A stretch of 64,000 nucleotides of DNA from a phage, in the NCBI GenBank assembly GCA_014686905.1, contig GCA_014686905.1_4093.1; one strand, given 5' to 3'. The position numbers were made by a program, and so were the translations under genes. How positions within the stretch are numbered: position 1 is the first letter of the stretch; each line of letters starts with the position of its first letter. Below are positions 19,435 through 48,334 of this stretch, in pieces. A model generated the notes under the pieces. It was not told the origin of the DNA. It saw nothing but the letters and a program-made list of their open reading frames with translations, and searched no databases.

Positions 19435-19677
19435 ATGAAAGTACTGACAGAACTAGAAATGTATCATAGATTTAATAAGTACTATCATTTACTTAAGCCT
19501 ATACAGAGGATTAAATGTCCATTTGAAGAGAAACAGGTTTTAATCTATGAGCACAAGTTCTTTGTATCATTAGGTACAGATCAACAAGAGTACTATTTGA
19601 CGTTGTACTTGATTACATTAATAGATTTAATTCACTATAAAACCAAACAAGCTAATAAAGAGAAATATGAAAACTAA
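19435..19677 (+). CDS. LGTNYQ-family mini-protein
   Basis: motif SLGTDQQEYY; ATG 19435 right after upstream TAA. Confidence 0.55.
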   Translation: MKVLTELEMYHRFNKYYHLLKPIQRIKCPFEEKQVLIYEHKFFVSLGTDQQEYYLTLYLITLIDLIHYKTKQANKEKYEN

Positions 19678-20011
19678 TATACAACTCAAGGTATATAAAT
19701 CATTTGAACATACATATATCAAAAGTAGTCTATGTAGAGATGTAATGGATTACAAGGGTAAGCCATTCACAATTACCTATGATTCTTATGTTAGTGATTT
19801 ATATATATCATTTGTTAATTACGAAAATAAAATATACAAGCACGTTGATATTAAAGATTTAAGTACTTTATCACCAGAGGAATACTTTCAGGAATCATTA
19901 GTATGGGATTTAGAGTTTCCTATGCCATTAGTACATAAGATGATAGTACTAATGAAAGAATCTAAACAGGAGCCTAATGGTGATTATGAAGAACACACAG
20001 TTGAGTATTAA
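19667..20011 (+). CDS. FQxS-family protein
   Basis: motif PEEYFQESLVWD. Confidence 0.6.
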   Translation: MKTNIQLKVYKSFEHTYIKSSLCRDVMDYKGKPFTITYDSYVSDLYISFVNYENKIYKHVDIKDLSTLSPEEYFQESLVWDLEFPMPLVHKMIVLMKESKQEPNGDYEEHTVEY

Positions 20012-20381
20012 AAGTACTGATAATACTAAGAGTTATACAAGCTCAAGTACTGTGACAATCGAAGTGAATTCTATTAATGCTGGTAATGCAGTAGATAAGT
20101 TCTTTATTGCTCAAGGGTACAGGAAAGATATTCATCAATATTGTTCAGTATATGGGGAGTACAATAGTACTGAAGATATAATTTATTGGTCAACACATCA
20201 AGATTATATAACTAAAATTGGCGTTCCAGATGTTAGTACTTTATCTGAAGAAGAATACTTTCAGTACAGCTTAGTACATGATGTACCTATACCTTTAGGG
20301 TTAATCAAGGGTATGCAGGAAGAGGTTCATAAGCTTAAATCCATGAGTTCAGGTACTTTCATTAGAACAGTGCAATACTAG
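19986..20381 (+). CDS. FQxS-family protein
   Basis: motif EEEYFQYSLVHD; start uncertain, overlaps upstream gene. Confidence 0.5.
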   Translation: MKNTQLSIKSTDNTKSYTSSSTVTIEVNSINAGNAVDKFFIAQGYRKDIHQYCSVYGEYNSTEDIIYWSTHQDYITKIGVPDVSTLSEEEYFQYSLVHDVPIPLGLIKGMQEEVHKLKSMSSGTFIRTVQY

Positions 20382-20440
20382 CTTGACAGTACTTTTCATT
20401 ACTGATATAGTACACTAACGTTAATCATAGGGTAAAAATT

Positions 20441-20686
20441 ATGTTAAATTTTTTAAATTTCCTTATCGTTTTGTGTATTGTTCTTGGGATTGCACCATTT
20501 GTATTGTATTTCATGGATTCAGATGAAATGCAGAAGATGAATTGCACAAGGACAGGACAGAGTAGAGAAGAGACGATTCTTATGCCTGTTACGGTTATTG
20601 TTAACAACATGCCCATTACAAACATGGTCCCTACCCTAACGACAACGTACCAGTACTCTTGTGCTGACGGTGAGAGGTGGAGATGA
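20441..20686 (+). CDS. hypothetical protein with N-terminal hydrophobic helix
   Basis: MLNFLNFLIVLCIVLGIAPFVLYF; not a family member. Confidence 0.45.
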   Translation: MLNFLNFLIVLCIVLGIAPFVLYFMDSDEMQKMNCTRTGQSREETILMPVTVIVNNMPITNMVPTLTTTYQYSCADGERWR

Positions 20687-21003
20687 AATTTAATATAGCA
20701 AAAACATCGAGTATATGTATTTTTGGTTATGCTGATGAGTTAGGTGATATTGACATTCTTTTGTACAAAAAGGATGGTGTTATGCATTTCAAGTACCAGG
20801 ATGAAGAGGCAGACAATTATCCTTTACCTAATTTAGTACAAATGCAGGAAGATGAATTATTCCAGTACAGCTTAGTATACGACATTGATATTTGCACGAT
20901 GCCAGTACTAATTAGTATTCAAAAAGTGATGCTCGATATGTATGATAAGCTAATACAAGGTACATCAGGGAGAATCATTGAAATCGATATACAAGACAAT
21001 TAA
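20683..21003 (+). CDS. FQxS-family protein
   Basis: motif EDELFQYSLVYD; ATG 20683. Confidence 0.6.
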   Translation: MKFNIAKTSSICIFGYADELGDIDILLYKKDGVMHFKYQDEEADNYPLPNLVQMQEDELFQYSLVYDIDICTMPVLISIQKVMLDMYDKLIQGTSGRIIEIDIQDN

Positions 21004-21196
21004 TCAAGAATGGAAGACCCAAAAGTACAGGGAATTCAACAGGAATTTTACAAAAGATGCATTGAATTTAAAAACAACAGAGTTTGATATGTTTATTTTT
21101 CTTGGAACACGTTCACAAGAACAATTTGTTCATTATTATATAAATTCGTTGCGAACGGAGATAGTATGCAAAACACAGGGTATTATAAAAAGGTAA
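20978..21196 (+). CDS. LGTNYQ-like mini-protein (outlier copy)
   Basis: motif FLGTRSQEQF; no in-frame ATG near 5' end, possible TTG start. Confidence 0.35.
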   Translation: MKSIYKTINQEWKTQKYREFNRNFTKDALNLKTTEFDMFIFLGTRSQEQFVHYYINSLRTEIVCKTQGIIKR

Positions 21197-21432
21197 ACCA
21201 ATATTTGTACGCTACAAAGTACAGGGATTTTTGTTTAAAGGGTGGTGATGAAGATTTTTCTTTGCGATTATCAGAATTTAATCTGTTATTTTATCTTGGT
21301 ACAAAAGAACAAGAAGAAATGGCACAGAAATTTATCAAGCACCTTTTACAAAAAATTAATATGCAAATTTTGATGCTTAAGTTACAGAATGAGATAAATG
21401 AATATGAATCCAGAAATAGTTCAGGATCTTAA
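21166..21432 (+). CDS. LGTNYQ-like mini-protein (outlier copy)
   Basis: motif YLGTKEQEEM. Confidence 0.5.
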   Translation: MQNTGYYKKVNQYLYATKYRDFCLKGGDEDFSLRLSEFNLLFYLGTKEQEEMAQKFIKHLLQKINMQILMLKLQNEINEYESRNSSGS

Positions 21433-21938: not shown

Positions 21939-22142
21939 ATGCAAAAGATTAATACGATAACATTAAATGCATTACAGGATTCATTATTAGATAGTATTAA
22001 GATGTATTACAATATACATTTGAAGGGTGGTATTGATAATTACGATTATTATTTGAGTTTAATTACATTTGAGCACCTTTCAGTACAGGACAGGATTTTA
22101 CATCCTACAAATCCTAGGTATCCATCGATAGGTAAATTATGA
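21939..22142 (+). CDS. hypothetical protein (67 aa)
   Basis: track ORF, ATGA-coupled to next gene. Confidence 0.45.
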   Translation: MQKINTITLNALQDSLLDSIKMYYNIHLKGGIDNYDYYLSLITFEHLSVQDRILHPTNPRYPSIGKL

Positions 22143-22687
22143 ATGAGATAGAGTTATTAGCACACAAGATAAGTACAATAATGCTTATCCTCAATAACAA
22201 CCATCCTATATCGCATATAGATGGAATCCTGAGTCAGAGGACAGGTGGTAGTTTATATTTGTCCATAAACGCAGATATCGCAAGGAAATACATTGATATT
22301 GATGTTGAAATCGAATATGATACAACGGGGATTGTTGATGTAGGTGCATTAATCAGTTCAAATCCAGTATCAGCATCCCCATTGACCAAAGATGTTAGTA
22401 CAGGATTCGAAGGATATTTGTGGTACAATACCAATGATGATTATTTTATATATCAGCATTCCAATACAAATTATGATGAAGACAAATTTCAGTTCATAGA
22501 CCCTTATGATGAAGCTGGCGTATTCCAACAATCATTAATCACAAAACCGCATGAGATGATGTATCTAATGTTATTCAGTACAATGCATTTGAATCCATTA
22601 ATTAAAGGTTTAAAATTTTATATTCAATTAAATTTAGTCCATGTAGTTTATGATTTATTAATGCAAGGATATAGTTATGAAGTATAA
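22139..22687 (+). CDS. FQxS-family protein
   Basis: motif DEAGVFQQSLIT. Confidence 0.55.
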   Translation: MNEIELLAHKISTIMLILNNNHPISHIDGILSQRTGGSLYLSINADIARKYIDIDVEIEYDTTGIVDVGALISSNPVSASPLTKDVSTGFEGYLWYNTNDDYFIYQHSNTNYDEDKFQFIDPYDEAGVFQQSLITKPHEMMYLMLFSTMHLNPLIKGLKFYIQLNLVHVVYDLLMQGYSYEV

Positions 22688-22988
22688 AATGATGTATACC
22701 CCAGATATGATTTATGTTGAATTAGAAGATGATGACGATGGGTGGAATTTGATTTATTCAAGAAGTTCAGGTTGGTACATGGCACATTTAAATGATTCGA
22801 TAGTTACAGATTATTTTGTAGATTTCAATACATTATCCGATGAAGAATTGTTCCAACAGCAATTAGTGATTGACACGGGTGGTTATGATGTCTTATTATT
22901 AAAAAAGATACAGAAAGCTGTTATTGATTTTAAGCCCATGATATGGCAAAGGAAATATTATGACCTCGAAGTACCGTACCAGCAATGA
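22677..22988 (+). CDS. FQxS-family protein
   Basis: motif DEELFQQQLVID. Confidence 0.55.
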   Translation: MKYKMMYTPDMIYVELEDDDDGWNLIYSRSSGWYMAHLNDSIVTDYFVDFNTLSDEELFQQQLVIDTGGYDVLLLKKIQKAVIDFKPMIWQRKYYDLEVPYQQ

Positions 22989-23526
22989 AATTCAGTACAC
23001 CTACGCTAATGCAATCCTTATGGGACAAAAGTTAGCTTGTATTGTTGCAGCCTTATATAATGCCCAGAAATATCACAAGCGTCATTTCCACAAATGTATT
23101 GGTATTATTCCATCGAAGTACAATACATATATTGCGTGCACGAGTCATTTTGATAAACGATTCAATACACCTGATACCCCAAATTCCCGTAGTGTTATTA
23201 GTCTTTTGGATTTCGCACCTGGTGCTGTTATTGGAAAGAATGATTTAGAGTACGCATGGTATAATAAAAATGCCCCATTAGTAATGGTAACATATGATAA
23301 AGAAACGAACAAAACAATAGAGTACAATACATATAAATCAGAGGAAGAATTTTTCCAAGGTTCAATGCTTGTACCAGTGCGTTTGTTATTTTATAATGTC
23401 ATAATGAGTACAGTACACAATAGTCCATTACACAAGAATCACAAAATTAATTTCAATTTTTGTGCTTATGCGATTGATGGTGTGTATGAGTGTTTAATGG
23501 AGGTATTGAGTTATGAAGCTGAATAA
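22960..23526 (+). CDS. FQxS-family protein
   Basis: motif EEEFFQGSMLVP. Confidence 0.55.
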   Translation: MTSKYRTSNEIQYTYANAILMGQKLACIVAALYNAQKYHKRHFHKCIGIIPSKYNTYIACTSHFDKRFNTPDTPNSRSVISLLDFAPGAVIGKNDLEYAWYNKNAPLVMVTYDKETNKTIEYNTYKSEEEFFQGSMLVPVRLLFYNVIMSTVHNSPLHKNHKINFNFCAYAIDGVYECLMEVLSYEAE

Positions 23527-23854
23527 TACATTTGATATTAATAAGTTAAGAGAATGGTTTTATAGTATTGAAATTGAAGCCATCCCGTATCATAGATATG
23601 AACAATATAATTTAACCAGTATTGATATCAGTGAGTTGTACGCGTATTATCAAAGTGCATTAGAGATGCATAAGTTATTTTTGAGTACAGATTTTGTTCT
23701 AAATTACAATTTTGAGGAATTTAAAAATTATAATTTAGTACAGAAATATGTAGTAGCAAAGTACATGTACCTTCAAGGAATTACAAGTATAGTGGAATTC
23801 AATACAGTCCTTGCTTTAGTTGAGGTAATTTTATGCAGTACATGTATGATTTAG
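23513..23854 (+). CDS. hypothetical protein, possibly degenerate family member
   Basis: weak motif LYAYYQSALEMH. Confidence 0.45.
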   Translation: MKLNNTFDINKLREWFYSIEIEAIPYHRYEQYNLTSIDISELYAYYQSALEMHKLFLSTDFVLNYNFEEFKNYNLVQKYVVAKYMYLQGITSIVEFNTVLALVEVILCSTCMI

Positions 23855-24339
23855 AGTTCAGCTTAGATGCTGCATTTAAATATGTTCACAAGATAGAAAC
23901 AATATACAGTACATTATGTGCAATAAAATCAGTAACAGAAGAGCTTGATGTTGGTGAAAAATATCAGGTATGGAATAATACATTTTTAAATAAAGAACGT
24001 TGCTCTACGGGGTTTAATATTTTAACATTTAATCCCAGCAATTGTTACCCAGAGAAGCATGAACGTTATCCGAATGACGACATGTGGTTTGAGTACAAAG
24101 AAGATTGTGATATGTCGTTCATTGAAGTTCCTGATGATTTTAATGCACAAGATTTAACAGACGAGTGGTGGTTCCAGCAGAATTTAGTCCACGATGATAT
24201 TGATTTATTTTTTTATGTAGTATTTAAAATGCTTTATCACAACAATATAGTACAAGATAGTGTGTTTTTTTCATGTCTATATATTGATGATTTGTACAAT
24301 GAAATTCAAATCAACATGCCCAGCACGCCTGTATCGTAA
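23833..24339 (+). CDS. FQxS-family protein
   Basis: motif DEWWFQQNLVHD. Confidence 0.55.
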   Translation: MQYMYDLEFSLDAAFKYVHKIETIYSTLCAIKSVTEELDVGEKYQVWNNTFLNKERCSTGFNILTFNPSNCYPEKHERYPNDDMWFEYKEDCDMSFIEVPDDFNAQDLTDEWWFQQNLVHDDIDLFFYVVFKMLYHNNIVQDSVFFSCLYIDDLYNEIQINMPSTPVS

Positions 24340-24421
24340 GATATGGGCTTTTTTCGTTTTGGTATTGACAAAGAAGTGCAAAGCTGTTATCATGTGTAAT
24401 CATTTTAAAGGAGAACATATA

Positions 24422-24934
24422 GTGAGTTTCATAATCCCAAGTACATACGAAGATGCATCAAGTGCAGTTCATAAGATTCATTATATTTTTAATTTAATTA
24501 TTAGATCTGCAAAAATTAAAATGTATGCACCTCTTGTGACAAATAATCGAAATGAAGAAATTTTTATTAGCACAGACAAAATTATTTTTCCATATTTCAA
24601 TGAAGATAGATTGTGGTTCATACATTTAGCTGCATTACAAAAATATAAGATGTCAATTCGTAATAATTTGGTTATACCGTTATATCATCCAGATATTGGA
24701 GAGGATGAGTATTTTCAGTACAGTACAGTACATCGCCATGAAGATATCTTTGTTGCTATGCTTATTGCTAAATTGAACACCGTTGATTTGGAGTACCACA
24801 AATACAATAATAAATCATGTAAGATCATAATCCCTGCATTCATAGCTCTTTATGATTATGTGGTGCATAACAAAAAAGATGATACATATGCTTTCAATGA
24901 AGAGTATTTGGATTTTTTTAAGGATAACATATGA
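24422..24934 (+). CDS. FQxS-family protein
   Basis: motif EDEYFQYSTVHR; putative GTG start 24422 after RBS AAGGAGA (track start 24260 overlaps upstream gene). Confidence 0.5.
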   Translation: MSFIIPSTYEDASSAVHKIHYIFNLIIRSAKIKMYAPLVTNNRNEEIFISTDKIIFPYFNEDRLWFIHLAALQKYKMSIRNNLVIPLYHPDIGEDEYFQYSTVHRHEDIFVAMLIAKLNTVDLEYHKYNNKSCKIIIPAFIALYDYVVHNKKDDTYAFNEEYLDFFKDNI

Positions 24935-25470
24935 GCAGTACAACAGTATCAAAAGTACAGAAAGCAATGTCATTCAATGAAATTGGTACATTTAAAGATA
25001 AGATCATTGATTGCCTTGAATACATGATTTGTAGTAATATCGAAAGTATCGAGATATTTAACAAGACAAATCGCTCTTACCATATGATGTACATTGCAAA
25101 CAATAATGGTATCATTCCATTTATTTCGGATAGTACAATATGGTACGCATGTGATACGAAAAAATACACAGCAGGTTCGTATAGCTTAGGGTCACATACG
25201 GAATTGATTATTCCTGAGCATTGTATGCAAGAAGAAGAATATTTTCAAATGCAATGTATACATTCACCATTAGTGTTGTTTAGTTTATATATTATACCTT
25301 ATATCACCAAATGTGTTCATGAGAATAAAGCTCCGTGGAATCATGAATTTGTATCGTTGAAGTTATTGTATAATGTATTAGTAGAATATTATGATTACAG
25401 GCACAATGGTACAATCAGTGATGTATGGGATTTTGAATCGCTAAGGGTGAAAACATACACAGGTGAATGA
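24931..25470 (+). CDS. FQxS-family protein
   Basis: motif EEEYFQMQCIHS. Confidence 0.55.
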   Translation: MSSTTVSKVQKAMSFNEIGTFKDKIIDCLEYMICSNIESIEIFNKTNRSYHMMYIANNNGIIPFISDSTIWYACDTKKYTAGSYSLGSHTELIIPEHCMQEEEYFQMQCIHSPLVLFSLYIIPYITKCVHENKAPWNHEFVSLKLLYNVLVEYYDYRHNGTISDVWDFESLRVKTYTGE

Positions 25471-25471
25471 T

Positions 25472-26086
25472 ATGACCAGAATTAAAATGTATGATTTGAT
25501 GCTGTACAGTAAAATTGCCATTCCAGTGCTTAATAAAGTGCTGGATGCATTCATTGCCAAATACCCTGAGAATTCAGTGTTATGTATTCCATTTAGTGTT
25601 CCAGATAAAGATGATATATTCCAAGTGAATGTCAGTACACGTGGTATTACATTGCAGCAGAAATATATGGATACGGAATATTATGGAATAAAGTTGGATT
25701 CAGTACAGGGTTCTAAATCAGCCTATGATTTTTTTGTTCCTAATAACATCGAGTCATGGGAAACAAACATTTCAAAGAAAGATGAAAATGATGTTCCTAT
25801 TAGTGGTGTGTTCAACAATAAAGTTTTTTATTATTACGAAACCGACAAATTCCCTGAAGAGTTATATTACAATTCAGAAATGAATGAAGATGTAGATGCA
25901 TTCATGTTTCAATTATCGTTAGTACATGATATCATTGATGTTCAAGAGTTAAGAGCAGAAATCAATTTAGCTAAAGAGTTATCGGACATGCTCCCACCGT
26001 TTAGTATGCTTTTTTGTGAAGGAGGTTATTTTTCAAAAGAAGTGTTTGAACATTTCGTAGATGTTGTAAAAGGGTTGGATATATAG
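25472..26086 (+). CDS. FQxS-family protein
   Basis: motif DAFMFQLSLVHD. Confidence 0.55.
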   Translation: MTRIKMYDLMLYSKIAIPVLNKVLDAFIAKYPENSVLCIPFSVPDKDDIFQVNVSTRGITLQQKYMDTEYYGIKLDSVQGSKSAYDFFVPNNIESWETNISKKDENDVPISGVFNNKVFYYYETDKFPEELYYNSEMNEDVDAFMFQLSLVHDIIDVQELRAEINLAKELSDMLPPFSMLFCEGGYFSKEVFEHFVDVVKGLDI

Positions 26087-26290: not shown

Positions 26291-26806
26291 ATGCATCAAC
26301 ACAAGCATCATTCATATGATTTTGCAATTAACATTATGAAGTTCATTCGAGCGTTGGAGGATGGGAAGCTTAGTCATAAGTACACCAAAGTGGGTGACAA
26401 TTGGTTCAGAAATGATTCCGAGTTCAGTTGTCATAAAATCGTGTATAGTAATCAGTACAGTGCCAATTACCTACAAGATGTAGTGATGTGTTTTGAATAC
26501 GTGTTGCAGTTCAGGGGTTCAATCCAAGATGAGTTGATGGAGCACATGTACATCCGATACCTTCCAATGCTCAAAGATGAAAATGTATTATTAAATTCAA
26601 TATACCAACGAGTTCGTGAAATTGAGTGCAGGGATATATTAGATACAGAAGAATCGTATTTCCAGCAATCCCTGATTTATGCACCTGATTTATTACAGGT
26701 ACATAATTTGTTTAATACATTACGTCAAAACATCAGTACAGACATATTTTTGTCATTATCGGATTATGATACATTTGTCAAAGATTTAGAGGAAATAGGT
26801 TTATGA
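26291..26806 (+). CDS. FQxS-family protein
   Basis: motif EESYFQQSLIYA; RBS GAGGTAAAAA. Confidence 0.6.
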   Translation: MHQHKHHSYDFAINIMKFIRALEDGKLSHKYTKVGDNWFRNDSEFSCHKIVYSNQYSANYLQDVVMCFEYVLQFRGSIQDELMEHMYIRYLPMLKDENVLLNSIYQRVREIECRDILDTEESYFQQSLIYAPDLLQVHNLFNTLRQNISTDIFLSLSDYDTFVKDLEEIGL

Positions 26807-27144
26807 GTCGATTTTCGGTTTGTGTGGTAAACATAAAAAGTGATGGTAGTTTAATTGAATTAGATGTATATGATGATGATAATGCATATGGTATTAAAGT
26901 ACAGGATAATGATGTGCAGTTCAGTTCAAGAACAAATTTTGAAAATCCAGTCCAAGTTCCTAATTTCATAGAAGATGAAGCAGCACGTTTCCAATACGAA
27001 ACGGCCTTTGATAATGTACATATGCATATTATTATGCAACAAAGTTTAGTTCAATTAGTTCCTTTGTTCAGACAAAATATATATGTACATGAAGTGTCGA
27101 TTAATGGCATTCAAAGTTCCGTATTGTTCGATACAAATATGTAA
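26803..27144 (+). CDS. FQxS-family protein (variant)
   Basis: motif EAARFQYETAFD. Confidence 0.5.
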   Translation: MSRFSVCVVNIKSDGSLIELDVYDDDNAYGIKVQDNDVQFSSRTNFENPVQVPNFIEDEAARFQYETAFDNVHMHIIMQQSLVQLVPLFRQNIYVHEVSINGIQSSVLFDTNM

Positions 27145-27154
27145 GGAAAGTACA

Positions 27155-27706
27155 ATGAGTTCAATGAGTTTATTAGATACATTAGAAAAAGACAGAAGTG
27201 CAATTAAGCGTTTAAAAGAGCAAGTACAAAAGATTGTATACAACGTTGATAAGTTTGAAGTCCCAGGAAGATTTGGTGATATTTCCCATACGGAGATCAA
27301 ATCCCTTAAGTCAGATTTGTTGATTAAAAATAAAAATGGGTTGATTTTAGTTTTGAGTTCAGATATGATGGGGGCAACACATAGTTATAATGCAGTATCG
27401 GTGCGTTCAGAGTGTGAAGGTATATATCTATCACAGGGTTTCAATAGCGAGACACAGGTTTGTTTTTGTGATGCAGTACATGACCCTATGAAGTTCACGA
27501 GAAGTGAAGCCCAAGCGTTATTAGAGCTATCAGACGAGAGTTTGTTTCAGTACAGTACAATGTATGACAATGATAAGCTTCGTTGTATGTACGCTGTAAA
27601 GCATTATACACAGGAGTTTTCTGGATTTGCATACCTTTTAGTTAGAACCAATACCAGATATATTGATATGTTAGAAGATTACATCGATAAAGTTGTTAAT
27701 GTATGA
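27155..27706 (+). CDS. FQxS-family protein
   Basis: motif DESLFQYSTMYD; RBS AAGGAAAG, ATG 27155. Confidence 0.55.
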   Translation: MSSMSLLDTLEKDRSAIKRLKEQVQKIVYNVDKFEVPGRFGDISHTEIKSLKSDLLIKNKNGLILVLSSDMMGATHSYNAVSVRSECEGIYLSQGFNSETQVCFCDAVHDPMKFTRSEAQALLELSDESLFQYSTMYDNDKLRCMYAVKHYTQEFSGFAYLLVRTNTRYIDMLEDYIDKVVNV

Positions 27707-28303: not shown

Positions 28304-28500
28304 AGACGTTTCATTTTGACAGGCCGCAGGGGGGGTCAAAAAAATTTCCGCTGAAAAACATGCTAAGGTATATGTTTAATATAAAGTTTTATATTGTGTT
28401 TTTCAGAGTACAGTTCATGTTTCCTGAAACAAAAAATACCCCGCCGCCGAACGTTCTCCTTATATTGGGGTTTACCTTATTAATTATAGTAGAGATTAAG

Positions 28501-28878: not shown

Positions 28879-29039
28879 TGGAATTTGATTTTTTAATATC
28901 AGTACATTCTTTTAAGCACAGTTATCAGTACTTTTGTAATTTAAACAAAGGTGATTTGATTATGGATACAGATACAGAGGCTGTATACAGTTCTAATATT
29001 CTGTACAAATTCAGTACTAATCTGAAGGAGATTTTATGA
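28878..29039 (+). pseudogene. truncated FQxS-family fragment
   Basis: first ~28 codons near-identical to 29407..29763, then diverges and stops before the FQ motif. Confidence 0.45.
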
Positions 29040-39377: not shown

Positions 39378-39903
39378 GAATGTAAAATGCATTACTGAAA
39401 TTTGTATAAAATTAATGAAAATTTTCATTAACCCAAAATACAAAAAACGTTCATTACATCATAATATTGATGAGCATTGTACCATTAATATACTAGGTAG
39501 TATTCTTGATGTAAAATATGATGGTAGAATGTTATTTGGCATAAGAGAAGAGAAAATAGATGATGCATTCTTTTCCTGTAAAGATAAATTTGAACCTTCT
39601 GATTATAAAGTAATTATTCGTGATGATAGCATCTACATTAGTAGTGATTATTCAAATTACTTCGATAAAATATACAATGAAAACGTTGACTACCATTATG
39701 AAATGATAGATTTACCAGTAACAGACATTGATATGGAGAGAATCAAATTTTCATTATCAGATAATGAGTACTTAGGTATACAAACATATTATTCACTACA
39801 AGGAAAGATTCCACCTGCTATGTATATAAGGATTGAGATTGGTAATGTATTCAATGATAAGGTTATATCTATTGCTGATAAAATATTGAGGGTTGAATTA
39901 TGA
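39361..39903 (+). CDS. hypothetical protein (180 aa)
   Basis: track ORF; no clear motif. Confidence 0.5.
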   Translation: MYIENENVKCITEICIKLMKIFINPKYKKRSLHHNIDEHCTINILGSILDVKYDGRMLFGIREEKIDDAFFSCKDKFEPSDYKVIIRDDSIYISSDYSNYFDKIYNENVDYHYEMIDLPVTDIDMERIKFSLSDNEYLGIQTYYSLQGKIPPAMYIRIEIGNVFNDKVISIADKILRVEL

Positions 39904-40463
39904 ATATCAATGATTACCAATTTCATAGGCTTGAATTTCGTCATTGTGTTGCATTTGCAAAAACATTGATGTGCATCATTGACACTCTTTCATCCAAACA
40001 ATTTCGTAAGGATAATGATTTATTTCTGAAAAAAGGTCGTGTAACATCAACCGATATCGGTATTGAACTATTTGTTGATATCAGTGTTGATACCGGAGAC
40101 AGTACAAGGGTTGGTTGTATAGGTCATATTGGTACACATTGCTTCACATGGAATCCAAATACAAGTCAAGTACGAATTGATTATAGAAATTCACGTTGGG
40201 TTGATCTTAGTACTGAATCAGATTTAGAATCAGCTATGTTCCAGCTAAGTTTAATTCACAATCCTAATGAACTTCTTTACATTATTACTTTCAGTTATCT
40301 GTTACAAAACTACAATAAACCATCAGGTTTTTTTATAGAATCAGATATAGATGAAATTATGGAAGAGATTCCCAGTTTAAAGGATATTCTGGAAGAAAAA
40401 GATTTCTATGAAGACTTAAGAGATTTATACGACATGCACTTGGAGTTATTTAAGAATGGATAA
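39900..40463 (+). CDS. FQxS-family protein
   Basis: motif ESAMFQLSLIHN. Confidence 0.55.
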   Translation: MNINDYQFHRLEFRHCVAFAKTLMCIIDTLSSKQFRKDNDLFLKKGRVTSTDIGIELFVDISVDTGDSTRVGCIGHIGTHCFTWNPNTSQVRIDYRNSRWVDLSTESDLESAMFQLSLIHNPNELLYIITFSYLLQNYNKPSGFFIESDIDEIMEEIPSLKDILEEKDFYEDLRDLYDMHLELFKNG

Positions 40464-40974
40464 AGATGATATTCTAATTAGACTAATTAATAGTTTAATA
40501 AAGTTCTCAAATAATGATGTCGATACATACAAAGTAGGGGATATTGAATACAAATCATTTGGTATGTACGGTGAGGATAAAACATATTATGCGTCAATGA
40601 AATTTCAAGATTTTCACGAGATGTTAATATCGTTATCATATGAAGATGTTGATCCAAGATGGAGTTCCAGTATTTCACTATCGAGAATGGTAATTCGTAG
40701 TAAGCATCGTTATATTTCGTCAAAGAATACTCCTAACTTGATTAATATTGTGTTGAATGAAAATACAAATCCCCTATCTAAACATGATATCGTACCGTTA
40801 ACCGATGAAGTTCTTTTTCAATTGAGTACCATTTGTGATGAAGATGTGATATCATGTATGAAAATTTATGAGAAGGTTGGGAGTGATATTCCTATGAACT
40901 ATTACCTAACTATAGATGGAACGTACCTTCGAGATGATGTTTTAGCGTACATTGACAGTGTTTTACCAAAATAA
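40456..40974 (+). CDS. FQxS-family protein
   Basis: motif DEVLFQLSTICD. Confidence 0.55.
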   Translation: MDKDDILIRLINSLIKFSNNDVDTYKVGDIEYKSFGMYGEDKTYYASMKFQDFHEMLISLSYEDVDPRWSSSISLSRMVIRSKHRYISSKNTPNLINIVLNENTNPLSKHDIVPLTDEVLFQLSTICDEDVISCMKIYEKVGSDIPMNYYLTIDGTYLRDDVLAYIDSVLPK

Positions 40975-41000
40975 AGACCCGTATGGGTCTTTTTGTGTTT
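40975..41000 (+). terminator. rho-independent terminator
   Basis: hairpin AGACCC-GTAT-GGGTCT followed by TTTTTGTGTTT. Confidence 0.7.
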
Positions 41001-41061
41001 ATGGCTTTACAAGAGCATTCAGGTGTGTTATACTTGATTTTAACTAGAGTTGGAGGAATCT

Positions 41062-41628
41062 ATGAGTACTGAATTAATTAAAGAAGTCACATTACTTCTG
41101 AAGCATTGTTTTAAGTTCATTCCTGATACTGGCTCACGCCAGTACATTAAAGTTAATGAGAAATATAACATCAATATCCTTGTATCTGAAACTGCGAGCA
41201 GTTATGCTAACATTGAGTTGGATTCTGAAGAAAAATATACAGTATTACAAATCATAGCAGATGTACAACGTAAACAAGATTATCGTTCTTCATTTTACAA
41301 CGATCATCTGTGTGTTTGCTCAAACTTCAGTGAGAATAAAATTGTGTATAAGAATTTATACACACATGAAGTGATTGATACATATAATTATAAAATTTCA
41401 TCTGATGAATACAATGTTCTAATGTTCAACGCAAACCTTTTGTATGATGCCAGTACTGTACGCTGTTTAGAGTTAGCATATAAAATTCCAAAGATCATGG
41501 AAAGAAAAGATTTGATTCACTTTAAAACTATTTTAAAATACAGTACAAAAGAATTAGAGGATTTAGTACAGGCTCTTAAGAATTTCATTAATGAACATGT
41601 ACCTGTTAAATTCGAGGATGCACAATGA
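41062..41628 (+). CDS. hypothetical protein, possibly degenerate family member
   Basis: RBS GGAGGA, ATG 41062; weak motif NVLMFNANLLYD. Confidence 0.5.
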   Translation: MSTELIKEVTLLLKHCFKFIPDTGSRQYIKVNEKYNINILVSETASSYANIELDSEEKYTVLQIIADVQRKQDYRSSFYNDHLCVCSNFSENKIVYKNLYTHEVIDTYNYKISSDEYNVLMFNANLLYDASTVRCLELAYKIPKIMERKDLIHFKTILKYSTKELEDLVQALKNFINEHVPVKFEDAQ

Positions 41629-42209
41629 ACCATATCAGAACTAAAATTTTGAGACTCATGCATGACATTGCAGAACTTTCAGAGATTCATGACATTACAG
41701 AAATTGTTGAATTTGATAATTATCGACTGAAAATTGAAAACAAATCCAAACATCGTTTTGGTTCAGTTCAGTTGGATGTATATAAAACTTATGAATTTTC
41801 TAAAAAAATTAAAAGTTCATGGGATACGATTACTATGTACATTCGCACATCCAGAAATCGTGAACGTATTGGTTCTATTTCTTATAATATGGTATTTGCG
41901 AATGCATTACATGAAAAAATGAATAAAATTGTAGAATCTAATTTCAGTGAAGATGATGGTTTTATTGGGTTGGATGTTCCACCAGAATTAGACCAAAGTG
42001 AAGATATTCGAGATGCATTCATTTTCCAGAAATCCTTGTTGGACAATTACAAAGAATTCGAGTACTTAATGCTTTGTTACGATACTGCAAAAATTCTTGA
42101 TTGTGGTGAACTAGTTATGTACAATGATTTTATCAATTGCAAGACTGATGTTCTGAATACACTACTTCAAAATATAGAATCTGTTAAGGAAAAATATGAA
42201 CGCTTATAG
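41625..42209 (+). CDS. FQxS-family protein
   Basis: motif RDAFIFQKSLLDN. Confidence 0.55.
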   Translation: MNHIRTKILRLMHDIAELSEIHDITEIVEFDNYRLKIENKSKHRFGSVQLDVYKTYEFSKKIKSSWDTITMYIRTSRNRERIGSISYNMVFANALHEKMNKIVESNFSEDDGFIGLDVPPELDQSEDIRDAFIFQKSLLDNYKEFEYLMLCYDTAKILDCGELVMYNDFINCKTDVLNTLLQNIESVKEKYERL

Positions 42210-42777
42210 TTATATGACAGAACGCCATCAGTTATTATATGATATCAGTAAAAAAATGCTATCAATTGTTGGTAGTGCGAAAGAAATTGAAAAACAATAT
42301 CTCATCCGTGATGTATCAATTTCATCCAAATGTTGGTCAAATGAATATTACGACCACGGTATTCTTACTATTTCTGGGGCCAGAAATATTTGTATTGTAA
42401 AAAATAAAAGTAAAAGTAATGAAGAGTGTGAGATTAGAACCGATATACAAATTAAGGATGATGGAAGTTTTTCACATCACCCATTCCATATTAGTACTAT
42501 TGGTGTTTTATATAATATTAAAGTACTATTCGGTGATGAAGAGTATGTGTTAAAAGCTATCAATCCAGATTCAAGTACAGTTGAAGAAGAACTGTTCCAG
42601 ATGAGCACTGTTATACCTGAAGAGGTTCTTAGTACTGTTGTTTTTTGTAGTTTAATTTATCATACATACAAAAAGAACCAATTCGATTTCCACATTTTAG
42701 GAACGTACATCTTCAATACTTTGAATGTTGATCGTTTAAAAGCATTAAATGCAGCAATGGATAAGGTGCTACAATGA
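42196..42777 (+). CDS. FQxS-family protein
   Basis: motif EEELFQMSTVIP. Confidence 0.55.
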   Translation: MNAYSYMTERHQLLYDISKKMLSIVGSAKEIEKQYLIRDVSISSKCWSNEYYDHGILTISGARNICIVKNKSKSNEECEIRTDIQIKDDGSFSHHPFHISTIGVLYNIKVLFGDEEYVLKAINPDSSTVEEELFQMSTVIPEEVLSTVVFCSLIYHTYKKNQFDFHILGTYIFNTLNVDRLKALNAAMDKVLQ

Positions 42778-43202
42778 CAAGAGATGATTGTTTGTACATA
42801 TGGGATATAATTGAAACTACACTTTCAAATCCAGAAAATTATAAAACAAAAAAAAGACAACGACACAAAATATGGATAGATTTGTTCGTTGAGGGCATAC
42901 ACGCAGTGACTATTTGGGATTCACCGAGGGCATCAGCATCTACTCTATTGGACAATGAATGCATTGATTGCATTAATTCCACTTTTCATCTCTACGGTAC
43001 TACATTTTTCGGTACATTTCTGGATATTGAAAGTAAAGATGATATTGATTCACTTGCGTTACAATACCAAGTACTGTATAATACTAAATTAATTTACGAT
43101 TTAGTACTAGCTTCTTATGTGTATAAATTAATGATGAAATATAATCATATTTCTGTTTCAGTTTATACTAAGGATATTCTTTCATTAAGAGACAAAACAT
43201 GA
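42774..43202 (+). CDS. hypothetical protein (142 aa)
   Basis: track ORF; motif not evident. Confidence 0.45.
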   Translation: MTRDDCLYIWDIIETTLSNPENYKTKKRQRHKIWIDLFVEGIHAVTIWDSPRASASTLLDNECIDCINSTFHLYGTTFFGTFLDIESKDDIDSLALQYQVLYNTKLIYDLVLASYVYKLMMKYNHISVSVYTKDILSLRDKT

Positions 43203-43708
43203 GTTTATTAAATGCACGCGAATTAGTTGAGATGTATGAGATTTTGTCTTCATATAAAAATTCTCATGGAGATGTGATTCTCGACAAAAAGTTCCATGTC
43301 AGTGTTGAACATATATCAAATATAGATATGATTTCTTTGGTGGAAAGTAATAAGTCAGGTCTTGAACGCGATATCATGCGTTTGATTTATATTCCCAAAC
43401 CATCATATACTAATGATAGTTCAATTAGTAATGAGACATTCATGTATAGTCCTGGTACGGATTCTACTATAGTATCGCTGTCCAATAAATCAATGGGTAC
43501 TTTCCAATTCATCTATACCAGTACTGATAACATTGAAGAAATTGAATTTCAAAACAATACATTAAGTCCATGTAGTAGTGTTATAACCTTTATGTCATAT
43601 CTATGGTCAACTAAAACAAGTGCTGTTGTATATAGTTCAAATTATACACAAGATAGTATTGTTGAATCATATAAAGTTCTAAAGGAATACTATGAAAATA
43701 ACAAATGA
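43199..43708 (+). CDS. FQxS-family protein (variant)
   Basis: motif EEIEFQNNTLSP. Confidence 0.5.
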   Translation: MSLLNARELVEMYEILSSYKNSHGDVILDKKFHVSVEHISNIDMISLVESNKSGLERDIMRLIYIPKPSYTNDSSISNETFMYSPGTDSTIVSLSNKSMGTFQFIYTSTDNIEEIEFQNNTLSPCSSVITFMSYLWSTKTSAVVYSSNYTQDSIVESYKVLKEYYENNK

Positions 43709-44273
43709 TTTTATTAAAAGTGTAGTACACCCTATGCTTAGTATTATGAAAAAAATACAGAATCTACCGGAAGATAACGATTACAAGTTTAATCGTTTTG
43801 ATTCAGATGTGTTTTGTATTGAAATTGAAATTAATAACAATCGCAATTTACATTTAAAATTCAAAGAATCGTCAAGTCCGTACTACAACTTTGATATGAA
43901 TTTTAAAATAGATACTGACATTGAAGAAAACGTAATATCAAATCATACTAGCAAAAATGGTTTTATGCATAGAACTACTATGTACAATAATAAAAATAGT
44001 ATTATATCTAAATGGAATCATCAATTCACTAAAATTTGTGAAATTGAATATAGTGATTTTGGTGAAGAGAATTACTTTCAGTTAAGTACAATTCATGAAC
44101 TTCCACCGTATGATTATGTTAAAACATGGTTTGATATTCATAATATAATTGATGATGCAATCAAACTTCCATTTGGTGTGTCAATATCATATACTGCTCC
44201 TAAAACATTTGTTTTTACTGAAGATATGATTATGAAAAAGATATGGGCAATTATCCCACTTATGATGGATTAA
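43692..44273 (+). CDS. FQxS-family protein
   Basis: motif EENYFQLSTIHE. Confidence 0.55.
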   Translation: MKITNDFIKSVVHPMLSIMKKIQNLPEDNDYKFNRFDSDVFCIEIEINNNRNLHLKFKESSSPYYNFDMNFKIDTDIEENVISNHTSKNGFMHRTTMYNNKNSIISKWNHQFTKICEIEYSDFGEENYFQLSTIHELPPYDYVKTWFDIHNIIDDAIKLPFGVSISYTAPKTFVFTEDMIMKKIWAIIPLMMD

Positions 44274-44334
44274 ATTCGTACCAGGGGTTGACTCTGGTAT
44301 TTTTGTATGATACATTGTCCTAAAGGAGAATTTT

Positions 44335-44886
44335 ATGAACTACAATCATGATCTTTTTACATTATGTGCATCCAAATGTGTTGATGGATGGACAGATAAA
44401 ATCAATACCATAATTCATCGATATCTGGTCTTTAGTTCTCGTGCACGAAGTGAGGGGGCTATGGATTTCAAATATACACTATCTATTGATGGTGTAACTA
44501 TCCATGCAGACGAAGAACGTCTGAGCATTAATTTGTATGATTCCTGTGTATTTGCTATTCACCAAAAGATGGGGAAAGGATGGGGTTGTAATAACATTAA
44601 CTCAAAAGCTATCTTTTGGGTTGGTCACCACCAGACAGTACTTGATCCTTCAATCAAATCTAATCTTTTATCCGATAATATGGTTTATGATTTATTGTAC
44701 TCCGAAGAACAACATTTTCAGTTAAGTACATTACATGATCTGGCACAGTACGAGGATTGTTACAAAACATTAGAACTATGCCATTCCCTTGAACTTAAAG
44801 ATAAATTGATACAAGTTTACCCTTCATTCTTTCATGAAGAAGTACAAAGTACACTAGATCATATTTTATATGGATACGATAAATGA
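44335..44886 (+). CDS. FQxS-family protein
   Basis: motif EEQHFQLSTLHD; RBS AAGGAGAA. Confidence 0.6.
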   Translation: MNYNHDLFTLCASKCVDGWTDKINTIIHRYLVFSSRARSEGAMDFKYTLSIDGVTIHADEERLSINLYDSCVFAIHQKMGKGWGCNNINSKAIFWVGHHQTVLDPSIKSNLLSDNMVYDLLYSEEQHFQLSTLHDLAQYEDCYKTLELCHSLELKDKLIQVYPSFFHEEVQSTLDHILYGYDK

Positions 44887-46059: not shown

Positions 46060-46068
46060 GAATGAAAT

Positions 46069-46482
46069 ATGAAACTGTATCATGCGAGTACTGTAAAAAT
46101 TGATAACTTTTATATCCCGTATGGTGGTCTTCATATGGGAGGTAAACACAGTGCTTTGGAAGCTGCATTACGCAAGCTGAGAAGCCCACTGAACGTAGTA
46201 GACGCATGTACAGTATACTTGCATACCTTAGAAGTTGATGTTGATAACGTGCTTCTGTGTGAAGATTTAGGCAGTGATGATGAGTGGCGTTCACTTATTG
46301 AGAATTGCACTGCTCAAGGTTATGATGCTGTTCAGTACAAAAATGATTACGAGCCAGACAATGTTCCTAGCTTTATGATTTGGGATGCATCTAAAGTTCG
46401 CATCATTGAAGTTGATGCTATGCATATGGATGAAGCTGAAATGATTATCGAAGATTTTCTTGATGAATATGAAGGTGTATAA
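46069..46482 (+). CDS. hypothetical protein unrelated to array families (137 aa)
   Basis: RBS GGAATGAAAT, ATG 46069; acidic C-terminus; function not recognised. Confidence 0.55.
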   Translation: MKLYHASTVKIDNFYIPYGGLHMGGKHSALEAALRKLRSPLNVVDACTVYLHTLEVDVDNVLLCEDLGSDDEWRSLIENCTAQGYDAVQYKNDYEPDNVPSFMIWDASKVRIIEVDAMHMDEAEMIIEDFLDEYEGV

Positions 46483-47018
46483 TGTCTGAACCGATGGTAG
46501 CACTGGCACGTACAAAATTACTATTAAAGATTGGTGAGATTTTTACGGTTCTTCTGTCCAATAATATTGATATCACTGAGCTAGATATTAAGCAACCGTG
46601 GGAAGTGACTATGTTCTCGGCGTTCCACCGATTGTCATATAAAGGTGAAAGTGTTCTTGATTTTAACCCTAAAGCAAAATTCATAGATTATGCTGCGTTG
46701 TACAGAGAGTTGCACAGAAATATTTATTCCGGTTGTATAACCAATAACTTCAAAGAAATTAAAGTTCAAACTGCATCACATGAGTTCAATGATTTACTTT
46801 ATCCAGAATTTAATCTAACGGAAGAATTACTCTTTCAGTACTCGTTAATTCTCACAAATCTCGAAACACTAGAGTTCTACAAAGAGTTAGTAGATATTTT
46901 TATGAATACACGACTTTCAAAAGATATTGTGATATTCTGGTATACAGAGCATGTTACGGAGGAATTGCTTACTGAATTTCTTCTAAATATGACAGCTATA
47001 AAGGAGAAGTTATGTTAG
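46482..47018 (+). CDS. FQxS-family protein
   Basis: motif EELLFQYSLILT. Confidence 0.55.
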   Translation: MSEPMVALARTKLLLKIGEIFTVLLSNNIDITELDIKQPWEVTMFSAFHRLSYKGESVLDFNPKAKFIDYAALYRELHRNIYSGCITNNFKEIKVQTASHEFNDLLYPEFNLTEELLFQYSLILTNLETLEFYKELVDIFMNTRLSKDIVIFWYTEHVTEELLTEFLLNMTAIKEKLC

Positions 47019-47485
47019 ATATTTTAGGAAACATCGATACTGCAAATTATTTTATCCAGGACGCACTGTTCAATACAGTTCAACAAGGATTAGAAGTTCG
47101 TCATAACGTTTACCAAGGTGATGGTTATTTCGTTGATATTGTTGAGGCACGAAAGAATACGTTTAATGTTAACATTACAACACTGGGTAGACAGAACATT
47201 GCACGAATTTTAGTAAGTAAAGATGAAATTGTATTGAGATACAGTGCTAAGTTTATGTTGACTTATAAGAAAAAAACTGATATGTTCAGTACTAATTTAT
47301 TTGATGAGCCATTTGACCTTGAAGATATTGAAGCTACTTTCTTTACTCAAAGTACTATGGTAAAATACACTGATGTTCAATTTTCTGCTGATGTAATGTC
47401 AGAAACATTACAAATGATCAAGGTATTATTTTATGCATTTGAGCAATTTAGAGAAGAAAGAAACAAGGTTAACAACCACAGATGA
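47012..47485 (+). CDS. FQxS-family protein (variant)
   Basis: motif EATFFTQSTMVK. Confidence 0.5.
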   Translation: MLDILGNIDTANYFIQDALFNTVQQGLEVRHNVYQGDGYFVDIVEARKNTFNVNITTLGRQNIARILVSKDEIVLRYSAKFMLTYKKKTDMFSTNLFDEPFDLEDIEATFFTQSTMVKYTDVQFSADVMSETLQMIKVLFYAFEQFREERNKVNNHR

Positions 47486-47498
47486 ACTAATAGAGGCG

Positions 47499-47846
47499 AT
47501 GACTAAGGAGTCAAAATACCACAAAGGGATTCGTCTATATTTTATAGATATTGGTTCAATGGAAGGCATATACATTTATGGTTCACAATCTTTATCTTAT
47601 GATGTAATGCCAAAAAAACATGTAAAAATCTTTTTAGGTTCAAATAAAAAAACTTTCTTGACAATTAATGATAAAAACGTTATTATGAATTCGTTGGGTC
47701 ATGATAAGGTGGAAATTGATCTAAACACACTGGAGGATATTGATTTTTTTCAATACGAGTGTTTAGGTGTTGACTTACATGGCATTAGTAGCGATATGAT
47801 AAAATCATTAATCAAATATTTCGAAGGTGTTCATAAATGTATCTAA
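47499..47846 (+). CDS. FQxS-family protein (variant)
   Basis: motif DIDFFQYECLGV; ATG 47499 after RBS AGAGG. Confidence 0.5.
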   Translation: MTKESKYHKGIRLYFIDIGSMEGIYIYGSQSLSYDVMPKKHVKIFLGSNKKTFLTINDKNVIMNSLGHDKVEIDLNTLEDIDFFQYECLGVDLHGISSDMIKSLIKYFEGVHKCI

Positions 47847-48334
47847 CTAAATCAATGAAAAATTCATTTGATAAAATCAAGAGTTGTCTTGATGGGGAAA
47901 ATATTACAAGTGTTACACAAACTGCTGACCAAATTCAAAGCAGTTCAAGTGATTGCACTGTTATTTTTGGTTTACATAGTCTGCGTTTATCAATAGTAAA
48001 TAATATTGACAACACTGCTATTGTAATCACACCATGCAATATTCAAAATGAAAATGGTGTATATCTTCATCACATGGGAACAGTATTTCACATTTTCAAT
48101 TCAAACGAAAACATTGTTAAGGAATACAATACTCTTAATATTGATTCAGGTGAATTATTTCAAATGAGTACTTTGTACTCATGTAATTTTACAGATACTT
48201 CATGTATTTTGCCATTTTTCTTGGAAATTATTAAGAAAATGGAAAATTTAAAACGTGAATACAATAAAGAAATGGTTCCTGAAGCTATATTAAATATTAC
48301 TAATGCTATAGAGAAGTATAATGCAGTGACTTAA
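47837..48334 (+). CDS. FQxS-family protein
   Basis: motif SGELFQMSTLYS. Confidence 0.55.
   Translation: MYLTKSMKNSFDKIKSCLDGENITSVTQTADQIQSSSSDCTVIFGLHSLRLSIVNNIDNTAIVITPCNIQNENGVYLHHMGTVFHIFNSNENIVKEYNTLNIDSGELFQMSTLYSCNFTDTSCILPFFLEIIKKMENLKREYNKEMVPEAILNITNAIEKYNAVT

Follow-up and report, generated by a model that had tools for sequence, protein, structure and literature searches.

A large tandem family of FQxS-motif genes near the genome end of Rak2-like jumbo phages

The host-takeover module of SPO1 and the pre-early genes of T5 are short genes located at genome ends, which carry strong host-type promoters and are thought to be expressed first, and the arrays of immunity proteins in polymorphic-toxin loci are read as binders against varied toxins. 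A further system of this kind is the zinc-ribbon expansion of Bacillus phage G (around 35 copies; Iyer et al., 2021, PMC7824862), and the lineage-specific expansion of a small domain in the early region of a jumbo phage is an already known phenomenon. In this work we analyzed a window of 64,000 nucleotides (nt) from a phage (contig GCA_014686905.1_4093.1 of NCBI GenBank assembly GCA_014686905.1), to which all coordinates refer unless otherwise stated. Positions 19667–48334 of this window are occupied, on the + strand, by an array of genes that share the short motif FQxS, and it is this array that is compared here with the systems described.

In the passages of the phage G article on which the comparison draws, the likeness lies in dozens of small-domain paralogues whose function was deduced from context, and the FQxS expansion goes unmentioned in those same passages; the FQxS domain differs in being no zinc ribbon, in having no known fold and in being common to several Rak2-like genera at the same locus. 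Takeover modules within or beside long terminal repeats (those of SPO1 and T5, and the suspected early region of Pectobacterium phage CBB, PMC5259590) resemble the array in their short genome-end genes of unknown function and strong host-type promoters. Those modules, however, are composed of unrelated small genes with a promoter per gene, whereas the FQxS array comprises about 45 genes of one family, lies just inside the repeat and is mostly operon-coupled. SUKH or SMI1-KNR4 immunity arrays are likewise sets of small divergent paralogues of one alpha+beta domain that may act as a binder repertoire; unlike them, the FQxS genes are encoded by a (lytic) phage and have no Pfam match, and the analogy would be one of logic only. 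Generic two-layer alpha/beta sandwiches (ATP-grasp subdomain, RNA polymerase beta lobe, polo box and the acidic proteins p32/Mam33) were also among the closest known systems.

Extent and membership of the array

The array is a tandemly duplicated multigene family, a lineage-specific expansion with 43–46 members in 28.7 kb. Among the 34 phage records matched by megablast with positions 30000–38000, the closest were SHEFM2K (98.9%), G17 and Sharanji (98.8% both) and 121Q (96.6%). The matched phages belong to Asteriusvirus, Rak2-like jumbo myoviruses of about 350 kb, and all the genes lying under the match carry the annotation "hypothetical protein".

The + strand open reading frames (ORFs) of 19667–48334 contained 36 occurrences of FQ.S, compared with 1.2 ± 1.1 (maximum 6) in 1000 per-protein shuffles, and only three were found in the remaining 98 ORFs of the window. 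A family hidden Markov model (HMM) was trained on the ORFs that carry the motif and rerun over the window until it converged (threshold E < 1e-3); it recovered 43 ORFs, 42 of them in 19667–48334 and the other at 59420–59998, with a best E of 1e-36 and alignments of up to 156 match states. The ORFs 43199–43708 and 59995–60684 were recruited once relatives from other phages had joined the HMM. Since the HMM alignment extends over about 150 positions rather than the motif alone and FQ.S is in such excess, the family is not a composition artefact. This was the objection that an earlier sequence-only reading of the window had raised against its own proposal of one paralogous family at 19667–48334; the objection was refuted and the family proved real. 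A chance short motif in AT-rich ORFs without homology is in our judgment next to impossible, two confident structure models being consistent with each other and the family being conserved across genera.

The same reading had counted roughly 55 consecutive members, mostly coupled by ATGA, of 100–230 amino acids (aa), with extra copies at 51037, 59420 and 59995. The members span 103–229 aa, as proposed, and fall into two size classes. Their number is lower: in the interval, 43 were supported by the HMM, one more is likely and two are possible. Neither are they consecutive, since 25 other ORFs are interspersed among the 68 non-nested + strand ORFs (≥50 aa) of the array; the 43 HMM members cover 20.7 of its 28.7 kb (72% of the bases). 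Tight coupling stood, with overlaps at 56 of the 67 junctions and gaps longer than 20 nt at only five (longest-ORF starts), but exact ATGA overlaps amounted to 16, so that "mostly ATGA" is too strong. Regarding the outlying copies, 59420–59998 was supported directly (E 9e-15) and 59995–60684 after iteration (E 1.5e-7), and the copy at 51037 was not upheld (ORF 51004–51891, with MFQLM; hhalign 7%). The family is nevertheless very large for a phage, with about 45 genes and 21 kb, and to this extent the earlier emphasis on its extraordinary size was justified.

Doubtful cases were examined by hhalign with small profiles of the orthologues of each ORF. This comparison gave 92% for 39361–39903, a likely member, and weak values of 79 and 55% for 26803–27144 and 42774–43202, respectively, which are possible members; by the same means ORFs 48377 and 51004 were excluded. 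The interspersed non-members include four genes of a second family of about 70 aa, an ADP-ribosyltransferase-like gene and several ORFs with remnants of the motif. Six of these remnant ORFs (34933, 41050, 44883, 45475, 47012, and 47433; 140–200 aa) were left out of the family for want of a significant profile match, and single-sequence hhalign of the motif-remnant ORFs against the family gave nothing significant.

The best paralogue was located no more than two family positions away for 15 of 44 members, as compared to 4.0 expected (P < 0.0005); this similarity between neighbours is the footprint of tandem duplication and, together with HMM membership, it supports the claim of a single paralogous family.

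Relatives, divergence and predicted structure

Neither the known families nor the solved structures contained a relative that could be detected, and the family is specific to Rak2-like jumbo phages of enterobacteria. With Pfam and NCBIfam, no family matched more than one of the 43 members and none reached its cut-off; membership in SUKH or SMI1-KNR4, in particular, found no backing, with no Pfam match in any of the 43. PADLOC-DB defence profiles did not match any of seven family members compared, the family profile had no match among PDB sequences, and no significant sequence-profile or fold match was obtained with solved structures, including the characterised anti-defence proteins in PDB. 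In PHROGs, the matches were phrog_9317, 12674, 13866, 15629, 19795, 30243, 30978, 34636, and 37163 (E 1e-56 to 1e-142), all of them of "unknown function" and with weak cross-matches between them. As PHROGs splits the members into many unconnected groups (at least nine), the size of the family is invisible there. Foldseek against BFVD retrieved only uncharacterised proteins of 121Q, RaK2, GAP32, Serratia phage BF and Yersinia phage fHe-Yen9.

When 1.84 billion cluster representatives were searched with HMMER without filters, only 166 proteins were obtained at E ≤ 1e-3, all of 65–224 aa and none with a domain fusion; the named relatives were Asteriusvirus proteins or phage contigs within E. coli assemblies. 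Of 177 family proteins retrieved, 94 were less than 50% identical to any ORF of the window and nearly all retained the motif, which was kept even at overall identities below 30%. No published description of the family was found in the literature, beyond general remarks on paralogues in RaK2, where they make up nearly 10% of the products, and in CBB, with 22 paralogous ORFs. The genes are present in public records, yet they have gone unrecognised as one family, and their domain has no known relative.

Arrays in other phages were located by tblastn with the HMM consensus and from their genome records, and counted with the same HMM. Family members numbered 45 in fEgEco12, 37 in the divergent coliphage Turkey5, 29 in RaK2, 28 in Klebsiella phage Muenster and 21 in Salmonella phage Munch, and in all five phages they were found at the equivalent place, with Dam and RNA ligase downstream; in Muenster, the array starts 0.9 kb after the annotated repeat. 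Salmonella phage SD-1_S14 (OR699183.1, 66000–115999) was also considered as evidence of natural deletions of array genes and discarded because, relative to the window, gaps of 30–900 bp recur at intervals of a few hundred bases all along it, even inside Dam. This record contains many calls of coding sequences of 90–150 bp, which looks like a problem of assembly quality, and the genome sizes of 310–326 kb given for SD phages should be taken with care.

For 34 of 44 window members the nearest relative was found in another genome, and the median best identity within the genome was 34%. Because of both facts, most duplications appear older than these genera, and the sequences place most of them before the split of the coliphage and Klebsiella-phage genera. 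The exception is the youngest cluster, at 30129–32429, whose five genes are 30–57% identical to one another. Reciprocal orthologues in fEgEco12 were obtained for 39 members, with a median identity of 74.5%, a non-synonymous substitution rate (dN) of 0.144, a synonymous rate (dS) of 0.557 and a dN/dS of 0.26, and were lacking for five of 44. The dN/dS median was calculated over 38 orthologue pairs, just one of which exceeded 1, at very low dS. The other genes of the window displayed 85% identity to fEgEco12 and a dN/dS of 0.27. The orthologues are, in consequence of these values, under purifying selection of the same strength as neighbouring genes.

At the protein level the array genes were 34–38% identical to those of Turkey5, vs. 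93% for the terminal-repeat genes and 64% for the downstream genes, a sharp mosaicism. Given these differences, the array diverges faster than the other blocks, both by turnover and at the protein level, with the individual genes remaining constrained. The term "diversifying", used in the sequence-only reading, holds for the divergence between phages and not for gene-wide positive selection: the dN/dS comparison that it had proposed, here run per gene against fEgEco12, gave the purifying median just mentioned.

The tandem-duplication signature, as well as the ORFs with a degenerate motif that stand in the array as decaying copies would, could also be accounted for by a largely neutral or selfish expansion, in which duplication inflated the genome with copies of little individual function; among the routes put forward for genome growth in jumbo phages is tandem duplication (PMC7247149). 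We regard this explanation as very unlikely, considering the dN/dS of about 0.26 per gene, the intact reading frames, the orthologues recognisable across genera and the motif strongly kept over long divergence.

The family consists of small, mostly acidic, cytoplasmic alpha+beta proteins (median isoelectric point of 4.96, and below 6 in 38 of 44). Long forms of 147–229 aa and 14 short forms of 103–137 aa, the latter without the N-terminal helix, were distinguished. The long form 31511–31999 was modelled with AlphaFold2 from an alignment of 28 window paralogues (predicted local distance difference test, pLDDT, 88.9; predicted template modelling score, pTM, 0.83). The model displays a helix (3–22), a meander of seven beta strands (28–97), a short helix and the motif helix (109–115, including F113 and Q114), followed by a helix (121–135), a strand (141–144) and a last helix (146–153), with the highest pLDDT (96–98) around the motif. 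In the model of the short form 29407–29763 (pLDDT 84.6, pTM 0.81), five beta strands are followed by the motif helix (65–74), a helix (83–99) and a strand (108–115).

Across 285 family sequences, F113 was conserved in 100%, Q114 in 98% and S116 in 86%; E109, E110, S116, and D120 were conserved in 75–86%, and the other conserved motif columns were S/T108, Y/L112, T/L117, V/L/I118, and Y/H119. Outside the motif, conservation affected A10 and I13 in the N-terminal helix, Y74, I75, and Y77 in one strand, a hydrophobic stripe on the helix following the motif and the C-terminal columns F141, Y142, (L/F)143, and D144. The conserved frame is thus formed by the N-terminal helix (long forms only), a helix-hairpin with (S/T)EExΦFQxS(T/L)(V/I)(Y/H/W)D and a C-terminal FY(L/F)D strand. 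Mismatches between orthologues reached 0.4–0.54 in the sheet region (HMM positions 16–90) and 0.09–0.2 at the motif, the start of the N-terminal helix and the C-terminal FYLD strand, and column conservation agreed with this distribution. On the predicted structures, we read the motif as a probable folding core and the variable sheet as a putative working surface.

The main rival assignment of the motif would be that the FQxS helix-hairpin is itself the functional site and docks all members onto one shared partner (candidates being host RNA polymerase, a protease or chaperone, or the phage ADP-ribosyltransferase or kinase) and that the sheet selects substrates or sites, the members then being adaptors or specificity factors instead of inhibitors that act independently. 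The invariance of F and Q in 284 sequences, the conservation of E, E, S, and D and the persistence of the motif at less than 30% identity are in line with such docking. So is its retention in short forms, which have neither the N-terminal helix nor the C-terminal FY(L/F)D strand that long forms possess, as is the ADP-ribosyltransferase-like gene embedded in the array, which has 59% identity to its Muenster counterpart vs. about 34% for family genes. However, the motif carries hydrophobic residues typical of a core (F, V/I, and Y, with L in the next helix) in the segment modelled with the highest pLDDT, S/T-x-x-E at the start of a helix is a classical capping box, and no such partner is known; we hold this assignment to be unlikely, although the invariant Q and the acidic pair call for caution in favouring a core.

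The likeness of EEYYFQQS and EENYFQLS to the tobacco etch virus (TEV) site ENLYFQS raised the idea of a protease processing site resembling that of potyviral NIa (E-x-x-Y-x-Q|S/G). The likeness is superficial, as one residue separates Q and S in all members and the motif lies in a helix confidently predicted (pLDDT > 90) to be packed in the domain. In addition, RaK2 is listed with a single prohead protease, which belongs to the T4 gp21 type that cleaves after Glu, and the products are absent from the virion. The idea was rejected on the Q-S spacing and on the position of the motif inside the predicted helix, and the probability that we leave to it is minute.

Genome position, expression and proposed role

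Position 1 of G17, which was deposited with both repeats, corresponds to its position 350150, and the inner edge of the terminal repeat falls at window position 13223; positions 1–13223 are therefore the inner 13.2 kb of a direct terminal repeat of 20.7 kb. From left to right the window contains the terminal repeat, a block of genes of about 70 aa (13291–19677), the FQxS array, Dam, a nucleotidyltransferase, RNA ligase 1 and PseT. Preceded by the 6-kb block of the second family, the array belongs to the unique sequence immediately internal to the left direct terminal repeat. The physical genome end is located about 7.5 kb to the left of the window, and records starting at the end place the homologue of 31511 at around 37–40 kb. 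The termini of fEgEco12 were confirmed via restriction digests (PMC13070987).

In the repeat (window 1–13223), 10 perfect TTGACA-N16/17-TATAAT promoters were present, all on the + strand and about one per small gene. In the array, a sigma-70-like promoter, TTGACA-17-TATAGT with TG (consensus match only), occupies the intergenic gap at 20383–20411 (+). A terminator-like hairpin (24327–24348) followed by a promoter-like site (24365–24393) marks an operon boundary at 24327–24393 (+), where G17 annotates a terminator. A promoter-like site (10/12 consensus match) lies at 28316–28345 (+), in the gap upstream of 28360, and a perfect TTGACA-18-TATAAT promoter with TG, also a consensus match, at 37131–37160 (+), in the gap before 37194. 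Another terminator-like hairpin (40973–40992) with a promoter-like site (41006–41034) is found at 40973–41034 (+), again where G17 annotates a terminator, and a terminator-like hairpin was predicted at 44278–44300 (+) in the gap 44273–44335. The near-consensus promoters 20383, 24365, 28316, and 41006 lie in the few gaps of the array, two of them directly after terminator hairpins. Only this placement is informative, since array-wide counts of promoter-like sites are not above shuffled expectation.

From the genome-end position, the few coupled operons and the sigma-70-type promoters in the rare gaps, we infer that host RNA polymerase would transcribe the array early. The equivalent region of short ORFs in CBB, with RpoD-like promoters, was proposed to be an early, host-takeover region (PMC5259590), and in the distant relative PA5oct the repeat genes were highly transcribed at 5 min by RNA-seq (PMC7318152).

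The array products are not built into the virion, according to data from RaK2: the 54 virion proteins determined by mass spectrometry in that phage included none of the array products ORF363–440 (no gp276–492). The host-range role suggested in the sequence-only reading is consequently not supported in the sense of receptor binding.

The absence from the RaK2 virion speaks as well against a purely phage-internal role of the family, in organising a replication or transcription compartment, condensing DNA or chaperoning assembly, without host targets. Such a role would be compatible with the fact that all the Rak2-like genomes examined retain the family at one locus, where purifying selection acts on it, and with the acidic nature of the proteins. 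Core functions, however, rarely need 20–45 divergent paralogues, the copy number varies (21–45) and orthologues in fEgEco12 are incomplete, and the genes are located in the promoter-rich end region and not in replication or structural modules. We find this role improbable.

The reading that fits best, and to which we give somewhat less than an even chance, is a binder battery that would act on host proteins inside the cell early in infection. The copies, about 45 in the window, form a genuine and mostly ancient multigene family, arranged as a few tightly coupled operons that would be transcribed early by host RNA polymerase; the FQxS frame would serve as the folding core and the rapidly changing beta-sheet half as the working surface, each binder neutralising or redirecting a different host protein (a defence component or housekeeping machinery) during takeover. 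The binder battery is favoured because of the conserved frame with a changing sheet, the small, acidic and unfused proteins absent from the virion, the promoters near the genome end, the variable copy number and the neighbours of takeover type. These neighbours, of takeover or counter-defence type, include the kinase-like gene 8827–9468, the ADP-ribosyltransferase-like gene 46069–46482, Dam, Rnl1, and PseT. Position and context alone make an anti-defence or host-takeover role plausible, and the array products would probably appear early in infection and bind proteins of the host. Family membership, genome position, distribution, absence from the RaK2 virion, purifying selection and the way variation runs along the protein are observations; early expression, binder function and the kind of target are proposals.

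Several points weigh against the binder battery. Its function is argued from position, context and pattern of variation, no homology linking any member to a target. An arms-race arsenal might show gene-wide positive selection, which was not seen. The burial of the motif was deduced only from residue types and pLDDT in predicted models, and the conservation of F113, Q114 and the near-invariant E, E, S, and D goes beyond the needs of a folding core, also fitting a binding or catalytic site. Promoter-like sites were not enriched, with 117 in the whole array vs. 129 in the shuffled expectation; the promoters are consensus matches, and no Asteriusvirus transcriptome was found in the literature. Moreover, the virion evidence comes from RaK2 and not from this phage.

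A bolder version, speculative and rather unlikely in our estimation, would have the domain as a new fold serving as a diversifiable binding scaffold, with 20–45 binders each disabling a different host immune or housekeeping protein in the first minutes, or with specificity subunits steering the embedded ADP-ribosyltransferase to different host targets. If either variant were correct, the family would rank among the largest dedicated counter-defence families of any known phage, and inhibitor discovery would gain a new class of scaffold; host-directed binders would amount to a ready-made library of inhibitors of bacterial proteins and could help to explain which strains are permissive after adsorption. 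Therapeutic use of Rak2-group jumbo phages against E. coli, Klebsiella, and Salmonella is under development, with more than 80% of their genes unannotated. The FQxS family represents about 45 of some 590 genes (around 6% of the genome) and has held one position throughout the coliphage, Klebsiella-phage and Salmonella-phage lineages compared here. Recognising one family turns around 45 "hypothetical proteins", which PHROGs and GenBank annotations do not group, into a single testable question, and the profile and the two structure models can be used to annotate every related genome.

Members along the array and neighbouring genes

All members are encoded on the + strand of the window, and the array as a whole (19667–48334, +) contains 68 ORFs. 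The E-values of individual members correspond to the family HMM, except for 43199–43708 and 59995–60684, which were scored with the HMM iterated to include relatives from other phages. The array opens with short forms at 19667–20011 (114 aa, motif SPEEYFQESLVWD; E 3.8e-19), 19977–20381 (134 aa; E 5.8e-23), and 20677–21003 (108 aa; E 1e-17). Long forms follow at 22139–22687 (182 aa; E 2e-27) and 22960–23526 (188 aa; E 1.5e-26), with a short form of motif variant FQQQ between them (22677–22988, 103 aa; E 2.7e-15). Further long forms are those at 23833–24339 (168 aa, variant FQQN; E 3.9e-23), 24260–24934 (224 aa with the longest start; E 3.1e-17), 24931–25470 (179 aa, variant FQMQ, without reciprocal fEgEco12 orthologue; E 2.8e-25), 25463–26086 (207 aa; E 6.9e-16), 26291–26806 (171 aa; E 2.3e-22), and 27083–27706 (207 aa; E 3.6e-28). 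The possible degenerate member 26803–27144 (113 aa) carries RFQYE, and only the C-terminal part aligned in 28360–28878 (172 aa with the longest start; E 2.7e-11).

Short forms predominate just before the youngest cluster, at 29036–29407 (123 aa; E 3.4e-15), at the modelled 29407–29763 (118 aa; E 3.8e-22) and at 29760–30119 (119 aa, variant FQAA; E 3.3e-19). The cluster itself comprises 30129–30599 (156 aa; E 1.3e-35), which is 57% identical to 31511–31999, 30601–31071 (156 aa; E 1.6e-25), 31068–31511 (147 aa; E 4.3e-31), the reference long form 31511–31999 (162 aa; E 8.5e-36), and 31977–32429 (150 aa; E 1e-35). Beyond it are a short form at 32426–32740 (104 aa; E 1.3e-10) and members at 33045–33494 (149 aa; E 5.6e-23), 33491–34027 (178 aa, motif CFQLSC; E 3.8e-22, hhalign 93.8%), and 34382–34942 (186 aa; E 1e-19).

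In the central part of the array, short forms were located at 35541–35903 (120 aa; E 1.4e-16), 36249–36590 (113 aa; E 4.7e-14), 38127–38489 (120 aa; E 6e-18), and 38473–38886 (137 aa; E 7.2e-15). The other members of this part are 35827–36270 (147 aa; E 3e-21) and 36550–37134 (194 aa; E 3.1e-27), both lengths being those of the longest start, 37194–37670 (158 aa; E 8.8e-27), 37667–38161 (164 aa; E 3.4e-30), and 38874–39377 (167 aa; E 4e-27). The likely divergent member 39361–39903 (180 aa) has lost the motif (KFSLSD), and the family HMM recognises two of its homologues from other phages.

The members that come next are 39900–40463 (187 aa; E 3.7e-20), 40456–40974 (172 aa; E 4.7e-27), 41625–42209 (194 aa; E 3.5e-22), and 42196–42777 (193 aa; E 4.4e-24), after which the possible degenerate member 42774–43202 (142 aa) displays LQYQVL and 43199–43708 (169 aa; E 2e-9) displays EFQNNT. 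The array is completed by 43692–44273 (193 aa; E 6.1e-27), 44335–44886 (183 aa; E 1.7e-19), 46482–47018 (178 aa; E 2.5e-15), and its last gene, 47837–48334 (165 aa; E 2.8e-20). Outside it, 59420–59998 encodes a member of 192 aa (E 9.2e-15) and 59995–60684 a divergent one of 229 aa with HFQLM (hhalign 41%).

The non-family gene 46069–46482 (+, 137 aa) has its 59% identity with Muenster gp123, annotated as putative ADP-ribosyltransferase by its depositors via HHpred. It starts with KLYHAS and later contains QYKNDYEPD, compatible with an H-Y-E triad; it had no Pfam or PDB sequence match, and its conservation far exceeded that of the surrounding family genes. Downstream of the array, 53134–53655 encodes a Dam methyltransferase (Pfam E 7e-32) and 60946–62088 a T4-type RNA ligase 1 (E 7e-17 and 1e-15), and the counterparts of 63185–64000 in Muenster and fEgEco12 are annotated as polynucleotide 5'-kinase/3'-phosphatase (PseT-like). 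T4 uses its RNA ligase jointly with PseT to mend tRNAs that anticodon nucleases have cleaved.

The second tandem family is made up of 32 genes of about 70 aa with the C-proximal motif (L/F)LGTNYQE(E/x)YV. Twenty-eight of them are placed head to tail in 13291–19677, immediately next to the boundary of the terminal repeat, and four inside the FQxS array (20978–21196, 21166–21432, 34002–34223, and 34201–34392); no Pfam match was obtained for the four members scanned.

In the terminal repeat, 8827–9468 (213 aa) gave a weak Pkinase match (E 0.0016, below cut-off), and its counterparts in Turkey5, Muenster, and Munch are annotated as Ser/Thr kinase. The repeat also harbours a 28-nt hairpin, AAAGGGATTGACTCCGGTCAGTCCCTTT, with a 12-bp stem and followed by GCTATTAT, at 2538–2565, 6212–6239, 9480–9507, and 11740–11767. 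Its stem contains a TTGACT -35 box for a TATTAT -10 box, so that a terminator-like and promoter-like module occurs four times in this region.

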